A program made the position numbers. Positions 9,001 through 27,000 of a stretch of 64,000 nucleotides of DNA are shown in pieces. The DNA is from Escherichia coli (lineage in GTDB: Bacteria; Pseudomonadota; Gammaproteobacteria; Enterobacterales; Enterobacteriaceae): assembly GCF_041886205.1 (NCBI RefSeq), contig NZ_CP169030.1. The stretch is one strand, 5' to 3'. Within the stretch, counting starts at the first letter, position 1, and each line of letters opens with the position of its first letter.

Positions 9001-12000
9001 TGCCGCATAATGATAATATAAGTAAAGCCCCGAAAATTTTTCGGGGCTTTACTTATATTATCATGACTTCCACTCCCTGAACTGTTCGGCAATCATCCAT
9101 AATGCTTTGTTGATTCGGATATCACCATCAATACCCGTAATGGCTCTTGTCCTGGTATTTTTACCGGAGGCACTTCGCCCCGACAGTCCACCTTTTATCA
9201 TATTCTCCTGAACCCGCTGCCAGGTTGTCCAGAGATCGTTCTGTTTATCCTCCCAACGACGGGGAGTAATTATTTGTTCAGGCGTCACTGGTGTTTTATT
9301 TTCATCTTCATACCTGACCATCAATGCAGCTCTGCCAAATAAATGTTGCTCGTCACTGTTAAGATGTATTTCTTTCATCGCCTCCATATTATCAGTAACC
9401 TTATCAAAGACACCGAGCACTTCATACGCACCCTCGATAACCTGCCCGACAATATCACCTTTATGTGGAACGCGGATTTCGCCAAAATTATTTCCGCACA
9501 CCAGACCATTTGTGCAGACAAAACGAAAAATTCCGGGGATCATCTGATAACTGGATGAACCATCATGTGAATTAAGCAGGATAATTTCAGGAACTTCTTT
9601 CCCGTTAATATTCCCTTCCCTGCGAAGACGTAACATATGTTTACTGTATTCGCGGCGTCCCAAATCGCGAACCCGACTCTGACAGGCAAAGAACGGCTGG
9701 AAACCTTCATCACGTAACTTATTGATGATATTAATGGTTGGAATATATGTATAACGCTCACTCCGGGATTCATGTTTATCACCGGAAAAGACAGACGGCA
9801 CAAACTGCATTAATTCATCATCCGTTAAAGGACGCTCACGGCGAATGGAATTATACCGACCAAAACGGGAAGCTAATCGCATAACAGTAACTCCTTTATG
9901 AAGGTATAAAATTAATAAAAATTTTTTCGCGTAATATCATCCTCCCTCGGTTATCATTAACAATAAGATAACAATTCCGAGGGAAAGGACCATCAAATCA
10001 GGTCAGTTCGGGACTGACCAACCTGCCGGGTGAAAAGCAGTAACAGCGCGATCAGCTCATCAGCGTTTTTTCTGACAAGAGGGGTATGATTCTCCAGGCT
10101 ATCCAGTAAGTCATGCAGCTCATTATTGACCTGGTGGAGCACCTTAAAAAGCGCCCCTGAATCCTGGTTGCTCTGATAGGCGAGACTGGCCTTAACAGCG
10201 TTATTCTGCATGATCCCGATTTGTGCGATTGCGTCTTTCTGCTGATCGCCTGTTGGCTGATAAGTGGTGTTAAAAGAAAATGCGCTCATGTTTCATTCTC
10301 CTGTGTCTGATGTTTTCAGCCCCCATCATCTGTTGAGTTTCGGGAGCCGCGGTTTTGACGTTTTGCGGGGACCTGCTCTTTGCTCCCTCCGGTATTCACC
10401 ATCACCTGTTTGAGAACCTTCGCCGCATGGGGCATCACTGCCACGGCCGGAAACGACTGTCCGGGGGCAGACCGCAAAAGTTTTTGCCTGCTTTTGGGCA
10501 AAAAGTTTTGCGGGATGTGCATTTCACCCCTGGACTGGCGGAGACGGTTGTGGCTGTCTATGCCCCCGGCGACAGGGGCTTAAACAGGTGAATCGCACCG
10601 GACAGAACAACGGGCAGGGACCCGCCGCAACGACGTGAAGCGCGGTTTGCGAAACGGCGTTGCTCCTTACATCCCGGCGTCTTTTTGCCGGGATGCCGGG
10701 AGCGCAGGTCACGGCGCGACAAGGGTGGCGCGACCGTTCCGGTCGCTGAAAACCCGGGTTTTTGCGTCAGGGATGGAAGCCGCCAGGGCGGAGACAGCTC
10801 CGCTGGCTCCGTTCACGACAGCCCGCCCCGCCAGGGGGACGCCCGGAAAAGGCACTGCCAGGAGAACAACAAAACAGAGAGTAATCAGAGCAGCAGAAAA
10901 AAGAAGAACAGTAGCAGGAACCGCAACATCATCAGTAACAGACAAATGACAGGTCTGAAAAGACAGAAGCCCACAGCAGAACGTCCGCGTAATGAAAGGG
11001 GCGGCGCGTCAGCGCGGCCTTTTTTACCAGCACTGACACCGTGTGCCAGTGCAGCCTCTGGCGACGCTACAGCGCTGCCAGTTCATTCAGGATATGGGGG
11101 TTTCGCTCAACCATTTTCATCAGCAGGATGGCTTGTTTATTAGGTTTAGCCAGTCCCTGCTCCCAGTTCTGCAGGGTAGTGACGCCGGTATGTAAATACT
11201 GTGCGAAAACAGCCTGTGATAGCTTCAATTTTTCGCGTACCGCTTTCACCTCATCGGGCGTCATAGTGACGGGTTTTGCGCTGACCTTGTGTGTTCTCAA
11301 AGTTTTTTTGCCAGCATTAAACTCTCCCCACGCAGCCATGCCTTCCTGCAATTCGCTAAAAATATCACGATCTTTCATCAACGCCCCCTTCGTCTGGCCT
11401 GTTCAAGCATTTCGCGTAAAATATCGCGCTGTGCTTTCGTCAAATCATCTTTCTGGTCTTTGTCATACAGGGTGAACAACAGAAAGTGGGATTTTTCCAG
11501 ATACCAGTAGTAAATCACTCTGATGCCGCCGCGTTTCCCCTTGTTACGCCTTGCATCCCCAAACCGTACCTTGCGCAATCCCCCGGTATGCTGGATAACA
11601 TCACCGCATAACGGATTTTTCAGCAACATCTGCTGAAACTCCCGAAACTCATCATCCGTGAAATATTCAGCACGATGCCGCTCGAACGGCGGCAACTCGA
11701 CAAATAGTGCTTCCATAACACCTCACAAAATCCCCTTTACTTGGGGATATTATACCCCCCAACATGGGGACTCTTCAATTGAGTTCAGACAAAACCTCCT
11801 GCTTTAGCAAGCGTTTCATAGTGCCCAATCAGAAGTTCCAGCCCATCCGCTTTTTTTTGAAAACGGCTGTATGTGAAACCATCGCATCGATCAGTGCATC
11901 AAGCTCTGCGCGGAGCTCCAGTATCCTGGTTGTAAACGTATTTTTGCCCTGGCTGGTCATCCAGTTTAAATATGCCTGTACCGCGCGTTCCTGCATGATT

Positions 12001-24000: not shown

Positions 24001-27000
24001 AAAGCGGCGGGTCTGGCGGGTCAGCAACGTCTGCCCGGTTGTGGTCAGCGCCGCCCGGATACGCCGTGTATCTTCTGCCACCCGGCAACTGACACTGCGT
24101 ACCGCATCGCGCACCGCCGCAAGTACAGCCCTGATTTCGTCTTCGGTCAGCCATTCGCCGGCATACGGGAAAGACACCTGCGTTCCGTCTGCCGGAAGTA
24201 CCGGCAGCGACTGCCACTGACTGCCGGACAGTACCAGTTCCGCCCCGGTTCCGGTCAGTTTTTGCATGGCGGAGGCCAGGACCGGCGGCAGTACGCAATC
24301 GTGGAGGTTGACGAGCAACGTCGCCAGCCGGGGCGCATCCAGCAGGACATAAATGCTGATCCAGCCCGGATAGTTCTGTGGATCTCGCTGATCAACATCC
24401 GTCTCCTCCGGCCAGCCCTGCGCCAGCAGCAGGTTGCGGGCGTGACGACAAATCAGTGCGTTCAGCGTGCTGCTTTCGTTCATGATTAAGCGTTCTCCCT
24501 GTATCGCCGCCCGCAGGGCAGGCGGCGATAACATCAGTCGTTTTCGTGTGTGTTGTTTTTCAGCAGGGTGCGGGCCTGATTAATCACCGCCTGACGGCGG
24601 GTGACGCATTCCGGGACGGTGAGGCCATGATCCCGGGCGGCCCATTCACGTTTCCACAGTGCCTGTTCAGCGGTCTGAATCAGGGACGCCAGCAGTTCAG
24701 CAGAGACGGTCACCTGGCGGTTTTCGCTCACGTTGCTGATAATCTCCATCGCCGCGACGGAAGAAATACCGGACTCAATCCGCTGGTCTTCCGGGATGTC
24801 CTCCAGGCGCGCCAGGACGGTCCTGATTTCATGATCGGACAGAGAAATATCCATCCCGCCAGCGAGGGCCTGAATCTCTTCCGGGGACCAGACAACCAGC
24901 ATCAGCGGCGTGTCTCCCTGATACTTTGCTGCCAGCTCCCGGCAGAGCGTTTCGCATGTTCCGTACATTCTCTTCTCCTTCTCAATCTTTGAAGCAGGAA
25001 TCCAGTTCCAGAATTTCGGTATATGCCTCCATCAGGAGGCGGTTTGCACGAAACAGCGTCTGACGCACCAGACGTTCCGACAGGGTGTCGGCATTAAAGC
25101 TGTACCGCTGCTCCATCTCATTCATGGTTGTACGCAGGTCGCACATGGCATTGGCCACCTCCGCCACCTCGGCGCGCAGTTTTTCGTGTCCGGCATAGTT
25201 CATTTACGCAGCCTCCGGTTCAAACCAGTTATCATTCGCGGCCCCCTGCTGCATGGCACGTTGCACGGCGGCCAGTCGTTGCTGTCCGGCACGGTGATAC
25301 TGTTCAAGCAGCTCGATACCGATATACCGGCGTCCGGACTGAAGGGCGGCCACGCAGGTTGAGCCGCTGCCTGCAAACGGGTCCAGAACAATCGCGTTCG
25401 GGTGTGTGAAGGTCTCAATCAGCGGTTGCAGGCTGGTAACGGGCTTTTCCGTCGGGTGATGGCGGTTGCCTGAATATTTCCAGCCCAGCACGTCGGGCAA
25501 TGGCTTCTGAGGCAGCGCCGGACGTCCTTTTGCCAGGATGTAAGCACATTCGTGACGGTAAGCGACATACGCAGATTTGGATGTGTAGTTTTTGGTGAAG
25601 ACCAGGTGGCCAACCACGCTGAATCCGGCGCGTTTCCAGGCTGCCATAAAGCGGTCAATGCGGTTCCAGCCATAGAAGCTGACCATTAACGCGTTTTTTT
25701 CAGCACGCAGTACATCTCATTACAGGCAGGTTGCAGCCAGTCATCGTTAACGTCACCGGCAATGGTGCGCCCGGAACGGTCACGGAAGCCCACCAGGTAA
25801 GGCGGGTCGGTTAATATGAAATCAATGGCGTTATCAGGGATACGCGCCATAACATCGATGCAGTTACCGAGGACAAAACGGGACATACAAAACTCCTTCT
25901 CTTACAGAGGGCACCGGGAGGGCCCCCCCTGTGGTGCCCGTTCCCCGCTGCCTGTGGGCTGTTCACCGCGTCCGGTAACGGGTCAGGCCGACCGTGGAAT
26001 ACCGCAGCCGTCGTCTTTTTGACGGCAAGGTTATGCCGCGAAAGCGGCTTGAAGGGCGTTCATCAGAAAAGGGCGACGGGCTGGCGTACACTGTCACCGA
26101 CGCCAGCCGGGAGCGCTAAAAGCGCCCGTCCCGTGCCCGGCCGGACGCGGGACACTGACCACAGGCAGCGTTCCTGCCGCGCCGCGTCAGCCGGCGCAGT
26201 AAAAAGAGGAGCCCGGCGACTTCCTTTGTCGGAAAAGAAACGGGCGGTTGCCCGCCCGTCTCCGTCATACTTCATCCGCCATAATGCGCCACCTTGTCGA
26301 CTATCCACTTCGGCGCGGTGACTTCCGGCAGTACGTTGTCACACAGACGGTTCCACCACGTCGATACTTTCTCGTTACTCCAGATGTCGCACCAGTCACC
26401 TCTTTTTGGGGTGAAAAGAGCAGTAATGCTTCCCTGACCTCATCCGGTAATCCTTCCCAGCGACGCTGTCCAGTACCGCTCTGTAACCAGAGTTCATGCA
26501 GCATCAGGCAGTTTTGCTCATCCAGAAGTACACCGTTCTGCAGGTGTGTCAGCCAGTGGGTGAACGCGATATTCTCAGGCGATACAACGCCACGTCCGGC
26601 AGCCATCAGTCCGTGGCATGGTTGAAACCGCACATCTTCAGTGGTCTGCAGAAGTCCGGCACTTCCGGCCACAAACAACTGAATACCTTCATTTGTGGTG
26701 CGGCGATAAAACGGTGTGACGGCACCGCTGGCCAGTCGTTTAATCGCAGCAATCTGTGCCGGCTCGGCAGAAAAATACATACGGTTGGCGCATCAGTTTG
26801 GCATGGGAATTCTCCTCTTACATGCGGCCTCCATCAGGCCGTGCCGCACCTGTAACCGGGCGACCGCATACGAATGCAGGTGCTGCCTCGAAGCCGCAGC
26901 GCGTGGAGGAGGAACGACGAAACGTGACTGAGTGAGGATGCCGGCGACAGCGACACACTTGCATCGGATGCAGCCCGGTTAACGTGCCGGCACGGCCTGG

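Follow-up and report, generated by a model that had tools for sequence, protein, structure and literature searches.

What do the genes at the front of a conjugative plasmid do for it in a new host? Whether a resistance plasmid lasts through its first minutes there is decided by the genes of its leading region, most of which have no known function. We took up the question for the span from 9993 to 26780 of a 64,000-nt stretch of Escherichia coli DNA (NCBI RefSeq assembly GCF_041886205.1, contig NZ_CP169030.1; the whole stretch is termed the window below), which lies between the origin of transfer (oriT) and the sopC array, and in which an earlier note, made from the sequence alone, had listed eleven uncharacterised open reading frames (ORFs) as prime candidates for new anti-defence factors. 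Our reading, to which we assign a probability of about 0.7, is that the span is a canonical IncF leading region in which six hairpin-led operons carry eleven real early genes of mixed function, a split methyltransferase among them. The eleven ORFs do not form a single class of inhibitor; a place in the leading region is not enough to make a gene anti-defence, YgeA and HerB being cases in point.

The enrichment of leading regions for anti-defence genes, on which the note had built, is published: Samuel et al. (2024) named plasmid leading regions anti-defence islands, and their Supplementary Table 1 includes among uncharacterised prevalent families DUF905, DUF932/YubP, DUF1380/YcgB, YchA/YubG, YcjA/YcgC, DUF1281 and DUF3560/YdbA (PMC11541004). 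The region and its anti-defence hypothesis are already known, and the window adds no new kind of element; the value of the analysis is a refined list of candidates. What is new is the reading of the DUF3560 gene and the adjacent gene for a 187-aa methyltransferase (MT187) as the split form of a fused protein, and the cassettes bounded by Frpo repeats.

An F-type leading region read from the entering strand

The span matches more than 5000 plasmid records at 90-96% identity, mostly conjugative Escherichia IncF plasmids, and its gene order from traM/oriT to sopAB is common to the annotated relatives, plasmid F included. It is preceded by the sequence GTGGGGTGT/GGTGCTTT, the nic sequence of F oriT (Table 1). 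Because this exact nic site is on the + strand, the + strand is the transferred (T) strand; the leading region extends 3' of nic on that strand, and entry proceeds 5' to 3' towards higher coordinates. The + strand enters the recipient first and serves as template for every gene. About 27 credible genes lie between 9061 and 26780, all of them on the - strand, and the ten longest + strand ORFs of the region have no Pfam match. The claim that every gene between oriT and sopC is transcribed from the entering strand therefore stands, as do the positions of the eleven ORFs, all on the - strand. From nic at 8164/8165 to sopC at ~27.06 kb the DNA is that of a canonical leading region, the plasmid being F-like (MOBF, IncF): the region is adjacent to oriT on the side transferred first, has the T-strand as template and carries repeats of the single-strand promoter type upstream of its operons.

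The inventory of known anti-defence and establishment functions needs some correction. The genes for KlcA/ArdB, PsiB, Ssb and MT187 are intact and hok/sok is present; psiA and the second methyltransferase, an N6_N4 methylase, are frameshifted, and a DUF1281 gene survives as a remnant.

Six operons behind hairpin-forming regions

Four copies of the Frpo repeat, 0.57-0.73 kb each with a mean column identity of 91%, match the Frpo regions of F. Together with one klcA-type and one methylase-type region they make six hairpin-forming regions, which define six operons such that every listed ORF falls in one (Table 1). Frpo copy 2 and the klcA-type and methylase-type regions were folded as single-stranded DNA (ssDNA), and all three fold far better than shuffled sequence (z in Table 1). 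Frpo copies lie immediately upstream of the 98-aa ORF, the 89-aa ORF (6 nt from the end of copy 2), ssb and the 76-aa ORF, so the observation that several ORFs sit directly behind single-strand promoter repeats holds.

In F, the klcA-type and methylase-type regions correspond to promoters described as class 2 (ssp2, upstream of klcA) and class 3 (PMC12672017; 10.64898/2026.01.09.698686). [quoted passage not shown] By homology with F, each operon of the window would lie behind ssDNA able to fold into a long hairpin bearing a putative promoter; the operons would be transcribed from the incoming single strand and silenced once the complementary strand is made.

The listed ORFs as genes

To ask whether the ORFs are genes at all, we computed the ratio of non-synonymous to synonymous changes (pN/pS) against four related plasmids. 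Every listed ORF with a comparator (10 of the 11) gives a value well below 1, between 0.08 and 0.55, a range within which psiB (0.11-0.35), ssb (0.21-0.27) and yfjB (0.18-0.33) fall and to which klcA (0.03-0.09) is close. Most have strong Shine-Dalgarno sites upstream, and all eleven proteins are found without a change on tens to thousands of contigs of public E. coli assemblies, under the name "hypothetical" or a DUF number. We conclude from these substitution patterns that the ORFs with a comparator are real genes under purifying selection.

This bears on the possibility that some of the listed ORFs are non-functional here, as decaying copies or annotation noise. Such decay does occur in the lineage. 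The 81-aa ORF diverges from a 96-aa form, seen in the sister plasmids (L007), after a KKK run encoded by poly-A, and by this comparison is a shortened version of it; the same lineage has broken copies of psiA, the M.EcoGIX-like methylase and DUF1281; and the 110-aa ORF had no comparator for the selection test. Two further - strand ORFs, at 21669-22343 (224 aa) and 18414-18647 (77 aa), were rejected as genes since they are clearly spurious readings through the GC-rich Frpo repeats, with a common repeat-encoded C-terminus. Given the low pN/pS of the ten comparable ORFs and the unchanged recurrence of all eleven, we nevertheless think it unlikely that some of the listed ORFs are non-functional.

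The broken genes themselves are not sequencing errors, an explanation that we rejected: the same fragments are found on 20-94 independent contigs (psiA 94, methylase 28, DUF1281 20), and because they recur in this way the breaks are features of the plasmid lineage. In the methylase an A7 run replaces the A8 of intact copies, leaving ORFs of 66 and 160 aa, both fragments occurring on 28 contigs. This break, and probably also that of the 81-aa ORF, is in an A-run. Slippage or phase variation at these runs is possible.

DUF3560 and MT187, probable halves of a split methyltransferase

Among the ORFs only DUF3560 gained a specific link in this analysis, to the methyltransferase gene beside it. A search of 1.84 billion representative proteins with the 453-aa DUF3560 protein gave 3895 matches. 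Relatives at 45-55% identity are mostly 650-700 aa in length, their first ~440 residues aligning to the 453-aa protein, and the best 120 profile matches are all 629-780 aa, the size of a fusion. In Pfam scans of ten relatives, eight had a class I methyltransferase domain after DUF3560 and one had, in place of the methyltransferase, an LPD29 polyvalent-protein domain. Among 133 distant representatives, an MT187-like domain is present in 97 (73%), C-terminal to the DUF3560 region in 96, and absent from 36. Two fused proteins were aligned with MT187, which is 48% and 43% identical to their copies of this domain (E 2e-40 and 3e-39), the alignments starting at the domain boundary. In a metagenomic conjugative element that also has N6_N4 methylase, HipBA, AbiE and KleA genes, one fused homologue is encoded ~2.5 kb away from genes like trwA/B/C.

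MT187 contains the S-adenosylmethionine (SAM)-binding motif I, EPSAGTG, and motif IV, NPPF, at residue 119, with little beyond the catalytic core; by these motifs it is a putative amino (N6-adenine/N4-cytosine) methyltransferase, DNA being its presumed substrate. What is one polypeptide in most relatives is two genes in the window, 46 nt apart and both under purifying selection, a split variant of the fused family. The existence of fused relatives, the likeness of MT187 to their second domain, the adjacency of the genes and the selection on both lead us to regard the 453-aa ORF as half of a split two-part methyltransferase: by homology, DUF3560 is the N-terminal and MT187 the catalytic half of a widespread fused protein. 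Most likely the two cooperate as an orphan adenine methyltransferase and so shield the incoming plasmid from restriction, DUF3560 supplying, we infer, DNA binding or target recognition. They are best studied as one unit. Samuel et al. had already tagged the DUF3560 family "methyltransferase domain protein" on the basis of structure (PMC11541004).

It could be instead that DUF3560 is an independent effector domain, co-delivered or co-expressed with a methyltransferase as in polyvalent proteins, and not the partner of MT187. The LPD29 domain in one relative and weak matches to polyvalent proteins in BFVD (E 0.011 and 0.053) point this way, as does the lack of the methyltransferase domain in the 36 distant representatives, and a nearly invariant segment of DUF3560 could be an active site of its own. 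We find this doubtful in view of the single fixed fusion order in 73% of the distant representatives, the minimal nature of MT187, which has a catalytic domain and no recognisable DNA-recognition region, and the close spacing and shared purifying selection of the two genes. Polyvalent proteins of phages and conjugative elements resemble the fusion in being large and in joining methyltransferases with other counter-defence domains, one DUF3560 relative having LPD29; the common DUF3560 form differs from them in being a fixed two-part protein of ~670 aa, not a variable multi-domain giant, and in the window it is split.

The segment in question, GQPILVGHHSE (residues 127-137), is nearly invariant in 100 homologues at 45-57% identity and could be a binding or catalytic site; RRIK (186-189) and W287/H290/R294/Y297/E298 are conserved likewise.

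The pair differs from the orphan methyltransferases known from leading regions. M.EcoGIX and M.BceJIII are single-strand-specific orphan adenine methyltransferases that aid transfer into restricting hosts (PMC7736820), and the methylase of F has been called an M.EcoGIX homologue (PMC12672017). The frameshifted N6_N4 methylase of the window belongs to the same Pfam family as that of F, whereas MT187 is unlike M.EcoGIX in being of class I (MTS type, NPPF) and in having, in DUF3560, what looks like an obligatory partner.

Genes of the klcA and methylase operons

How far, then, does anti-defence extend to the other ORFs? The klcA and methylase operons provide a context for it. KlcA/ArdB is an inhibitor of type I restriction. 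In F, deletion of the klcA promoter (ssp2) carries a 36-fold cost against type II EcoGIII and a 5-fold cost against EcoKI (10.64898/2026.01.09.698686). Because the type I specificity of KlcA/ArdB would not explain the 36-fold cost, the two genes downstream, for the DUF1380-like protein and the 63-aa ORF, become candidates for the type II effect. They may, by analogy with F, be the best candidates for this unexplained effect, a lead and not a result. The operon context likewise makes the two DUF1380 proteins and the 259-, 63- and 73-aa ORFs the most plausible anti-restriction accessories.

The paralogy of the two DUF1380 proteins in the earlier note stands: they are 28% identical over 116 aa (BLASTP, E 2e-6). 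The product of the 22398 ORF scores 21 bits, below the Pfam cutoff of 26. A homologue search with this 139-aa protein gave close relatives only among the best 120 matches. Both paralogues are most conserved in the motif W-x-L-[ST]-[DE]-x-E-[IL]-x-x-V-[LM]-x-x-[LV]-x-D, which is found again in the 259-aa protein at residues 111-127, perhaps by chance; a comparison of the 259-aa family with the DUF1380 profile matched only a 20-residue motif, at 3% probability. The 259-aa ORF extends to 24534 (276 aa); most database entries are 256-259 aa, and translation most likely starts at M18, giving 259 aa.

A stronger claim would be that the eleven ORFs, all or most of them, encode proteins that inhibit host defence directly, whether restriction-modification, CRISPR-Cas, BREX or retrons. 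In its favour are the statistical enrichment of such regions for anti-defence genes (PMC11541004), the operons shared with klcA and methyltransferases, the possible contribution of downstream genes to the 36-fold type II cost in F (10.64898/2026.01.09.698686), and the small size and acidity, like those of known DNA mimics, of several products, the acidic ones being the 139-aa DUF1380 protein (net charge -15), the 144-aa DUF1380 protein and the 259-aa protein (-9 each) and the product of the 73-aa ORF. Yet no ORF matches a known anti-defence family, five of them (76-, 63-, 81-, 89- and 110-aa) are basic, the 81-aa copy is truncated, and, as described next, one ORF shows a strong phenotype even though no foreign defence system is in play, and a neighbouring gene acts on host transcription. 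We consider the claim, in this general form, quite improbable.

Probable establishment functions: YgeA and HerB

The 89-aa ORF is the homologue of F YgeA, from which it differs in being six residues shorter and in its last four residues. Deletion of ygeA in F reduces transfer to 3.9% in an isogenic K-12 mating, and ygeB, the DUF932 gene of F, could not be deleted alone (PMC9849209). The isogenic phenotype and the failure to delete ygeB by itself argue that the role of YgeA lies in establishment or regulation, in connection with DUF932, rather than in inhibiting a foreign defence. We take the 89-aa ORF to be YgeA, a putative establishment factor linked to the DUF932 gene. In F the two genes are adjacent; in the window a whole cassette parts them, and the slot beside DUF932, held by YgeA in F and in L002, is filled in the window and in L001 by the unrelated 98-aa ORF. 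The paralogy of the 98- and 81-aa ORFs proposed earlier is borne out (38.7% identity over 75 aa, BLASTP E 3e-17), and the two may occupy equivalent first-after-Frpo slots.

The ParB-like 652-aa protein is the orthologue of F YfjB, which a 2026 preprint renames HerB, a protein that binds the host chromosome and reprograms transcription (PMC13370423); by orthology, the protein of the window would do the same. YgeA and HerB show that "leading" is not always "anti-defence".

These cases lend weight to the view that the small ORFs mostly serve establishment or the manipulation of the host, not counter-defence, and act in DNA processing, strand conversion, regulation of neighbouring genes (DUF932 for one) or host physiology. 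The YgeA and ygeB phenotypes suggest the relationship of a regulator or antidote (PMC9849209), HerB provides a precedent (PMC13370423), Ssb and PsiB handle the plasmid's own single-stranded DNA, and the 76-aa protein is extremely basic, as are nucleic-acid binders. On the other side, the klcA and methylase operons clearly have to do with restriction, the link of DUF3560 to a methyltransferase points to anti-restriction, and for the small ORFs the role is assigned by analogy with YgeA and HerB. This is a serious possibility, at somewhat less than even odds.

We return to the reading of the region as a canonical leading region with genes of mixed function. The anti-defence candidacy of the ORFs is maintained by their context, with klcA/ardB, psiB, ssb and methyltransferases in hairpin-led operons, and weakened by the roles of YgeA and HerB and by the lack of matches for the small ORFs. 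Several observations weigh against the reading of mixed function itself. Scans of Pfam, PHROGs and NCBIfam gave the small ORFs no characterised family or function, matches being to DUFs or families of unknown function at most. Early expression of this plasmid's operons is inferred from F by homology. With psiA, one methylase, DUF1281 and the 81-aa ORF decaying, not every ORF need function in this lineage. The fusion of DUF3560 with a methyltransferase is linkage, not mechanism, and in polyvalent proteins, to which the LPD29 domain of one relative points, domains can act independently. Structure prediction with a fold search, proposed in the earlier note, succeeded in part: AlphaFold2 modelled the DUF3560 protein well (predicted local distance difference test score, pLDDT, 91.6), but searches of PDB and BFVD with this model brought up no structural relative that would back the DNA-binding role, and the 259-aa protein, with homologues at >=80% identity only, gave a poor model (pLDDT 55.8) that was not used for fold search.

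Cassettes bounded by Frpo repeats

The leading regions of F and the window share DUF932, hok/sok, psiA/psiB, yfjB, yfjA, ssb and the klcA and methylase operons, at 88-97% nucleotide identity, and the Frpo, klcA-type and methylase-type promoter regions. They differ in the number of Frpo copies, four in the window and two in F, and in two extra cassettes of the window, one with the YgeA-like, 110-aa, 81-aa and toxin-antitoxin genes and one with the 76-aa, DUF3560 and MT187 genes; in the window psiA and the methylase are frameshifted, and beside DUF932 it has the 98-aa gene where F has YgeA. A 28-nt Frpo core is present in 4 copies in the window, 3 in L001 and 2 in F. The segment that copies 3 and 4 enclose (76 aa, DUF3560, MT187) is missing from F, and L001 and L002 lack that between copies 1 and 2 (YgeA-like, 110 aa, 81 aa, toxin-antitoxin). 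The latter has a single fixed order in 148 index blocks and no full-length match in PLSDB. A Klebsiella aerogenes plasmid (L004, pC91664_1_140k) has at 3292-8585 three Frpo-like copies, 72% identical to those of the window, with different cargo: an N-6 DNA methylase and three small ORFs, then the same toxin-antitoxin pair and two other small ORFs. The alignments thus indicate that Frpo repeats bound cassettes that differ between related plasmids, a structure that explains why closely related plasmids differ block by block in their leading regions.

An addiction module is present in each of the two segments closest to oriT, hok/sok in one and a probable type II pair in the other; the segment without a module is the one that F lacks. 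It has been suggested that flmAB protects an inter-Frpo segment from loss by recombination (PMC9849209), and the modules in the two oriT-nearest segments fit this suggestion. The AT-rich 110-aa ORF, its low GC content as described in the earlier note, has no megablast match in PLSDB and is cargo of a rare cassette with its own putative toxin-antitoxin pair.

These elements can be joined in one picture, which we offer tentatively and think rather less probable than its negation: DUF3560 would be a hitherto unrecognised DNA-engaging partner that makes the minimal NPPF methyltransferase an early orphan methylase, fused in most conjugative elements and split in IncF; Frpo repeats would be recombination boundaries that swap self-promoted, toxin-antitoxin-held cassettes; and at least one gene downstream of klcA, for the DUF1380 protein or the 63-aa ORF, would be a new type II restriction inhibitor.

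The region also resembles the published anti-defence islands (PMC11541004) in lying next to oriT, in having its genes on the T-strand with Frpo promoters, and in its klcA, psiB, ssb, methyltransferase and toxin-antitoxin content. Many of those islands are bounded by umuCD homologues, and the window's far boundary is sopC; there is no difference in kind.

Table 1. Features of the leading region in the window, in order of position, followed by the operons.
Feature	Position	Strand	Evidence and remarks
F-type oriT nic sequence	8156-8172	+	exact match, single occurrence, 0.02 expected by chance
DUF932 gene (ygeB/yubP type), 273 aa, nearest oriT	9061-9882	-	Pfam DUF932 4.2e-53; pN/pS 0.03-0.05
98-aa ORF	9993-10289	-	strong Shine-Dalgarno; pN/pS 0.19 against L001; exact sequence on at least 1000 contigs; no family or PDB match
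Frpo/ssi class-1 single-strand promoter repeat, copy 1	10297-11027		repeat families and four-copy alignment
MqsA-family helix-turn-helix (HTH) antitoxin, 103 aa	11067-11378	-	Pfam MqsA_antitoxin 40.4 bits (cutoff 30), HTH_3; 103 aa in L005-L010
RelE/HigB-2-like toxin, 112 aa	11378-11716	-	Pfam RelE 21.8 bits, below cutoff 27; public records 'toxin' or 'HigB-2'
81-aa ORF, paralogue of 98-aa ORF	11829-12074	-	BLASTP
110-aa ORF	12143-12475	-	GC 0.33, with 0.5-0.6 around; no family match
89-aa ORF, YgeA homologue	12530-12799	-	93% identity over 85 aa to F YgeA; pN/pS 0.16-0.25
Frpo repeat, copy 2	12805-13379		repeat families, alignment; + strand as ssDNA folds with z = -9.2
hok/sok (flm-type) type I toxin-antitoxin	13698-14025	-	Rfam sok 92.6 bits (gathering score 59); Hok peptide within ORF 13698-13997
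psiA, frameshifted pseudogene	14131-14849	-	1-nt deletion at ~14741 relative to intact psiA of L002; 177-aa fragment on 94 contigs
psiB	14846-15280	-	96-97% nucleotide identity to annotated psiB
ParB-like 652-aa protein, F YfjB/HerB orthologue	15335-17293	-	Pfam ParB_N, the CTP-binding N-terminal domain, and HTH_ParB; 93% identity over 652 aa
DUF905 gene (yfjA/yubL type)	17357-17590	-	Pfam DUF905 5.9e-33
plasmid ssb	17647-18186	-	96.7% nucleotide identity to F ssb; annotation
Frpo repeat, copy 3 (Frpo2/ssp1b equivalent)	18193-18926		repeat families, alignment
MT187, predicted 187-aa class I SAM-dependent amino-methyltransferase	18992-19555	-	Pfam MTS, Methyltransf_25, RrnaAD
DUF3560 protein, 453 aa	19602-20963	-	Pfam DUF3560 (PF12083) 2.2e-37, 128.3 bits (cutoff 27.2), residues 89-206
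76-aa ORF, first clear gene behind Frpo copy 4	21015-21245	-	isoelectric point 11.9; pN/pS 0.08 on few substitutions; weak HU-like Pfam match below cutoff
AS-pc01 antisense RNA family match	21240-21339	+	Rfam RF02875, 98.9 bits (gathering score 79)
Frpo repeat, copy 4	21448-22021		repeat families, alignment, likeness to F region
63-aa ORF, last of klcA operon	22207-22398	-	start overlaps DUF1380 stop; pN/pS 0.14-0.22; no family match
139-aa acidic DUF1380-like protein	22398-22817	-	pN/pS 0.15-0.36; public records name it DUF1380
klcA/ardB antirestriction gene	22864-23289	-	Pfam PF03230 3.5e-26; pN/pS 0.03-0.09
klcA-type hairpin region	23290-23703		ssDNA fold z = -5.3; 88% identity to F region upstream of klcA
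259-aa acidic protein (YchA/YubG family)	23704-24483	-	PHROG 8919 7e-139, unknown function; pN/pS 0.18-0.24
144-aa DUF1380 protein	24534-24968	-	Pfam DUF1380 (PF07128) 3.8e-49, 166.7 bits (cutoff 26); pN/pS 0.33-0.55
73-aa acidic ORF	24982-25203	-	PHROG 4830 4.8e-34, unknown function; pN/pS 0.24-0.28 on ~40 substitutions
N6_N4 DNA methylase (M.EcoGIX-like), frameshifted	25204-25886	-	Pfam N6_N4_Mtase; 1-nt deletion at ~25693
methylase-type hairpin region (class 3 ssDNA promoter type)	25887-26300		ssDNA fold z = -6.1; 96% identity to F region upstream of its methylase
DUF1281 remnant	26301-26780	-	Pfam covers profile 1-98 of 177; internal deletion and frameshift relative to L002; fragment on 20 contigs
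sopC array, far boundary of region	27063-27878		13 copies of 43-bp repeat at 43-bp spacing
Operon 1			methylase-type region, then methylase (broken), 73 aa, DUF1380 (144 aa), 259 aa
Operon 2			klcA-type region, then klcA, DUF1380-like (139 aa), 63 aa
Operon 3			Frpo copy 4, then 76 aa, DUF3560, MT187
Operon 4			Frpo copy 3, then ssb, yfjA, yfjB, psiB, psiA (broken), hok/sok
Operon 5			Frpo copy 2, then YgeA-like (89 aa), 110 aa, 81 aa, toxin, antitoxin
Operon 6			Frpo copy 1, then 98 aa, DUF932

Other features of the region

Sequence searches of the PDB with nine of the ORFs gave nothing significant. The 76-aa ORF was compared with a small gene upstream of a fused DUF3560 homologue and found to be unrelated to it. 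A 46-aa ORF (21340-21480), for which pN/pS was uninformative, precedes it, and the AS-pc01 match lies between the stop of the one and the start of the other, where it covers the start codon and leader of the 76-aa ORF and runs antisense to the leader of the operon that this ORF forms with DUF3560 and MT187.

Absent from the earlier list is the putative type II toxin-antitoxin pair of RelE/HigB-2-MqsA type between Frpo copies 1 and 2, in which the toxin gene comes first and overlaps the antitoxin gene by 1 nt; the pair is rare among PLSDB plasmids and fixed in the lineage. In the sister plasmid L010, at 3414-3905, a 163-aa ORF fuses ssb to psiB, retaining both Pfam domains, with the yfjA and yfjB genes between them deleted: another sign of recombination in the leading region.

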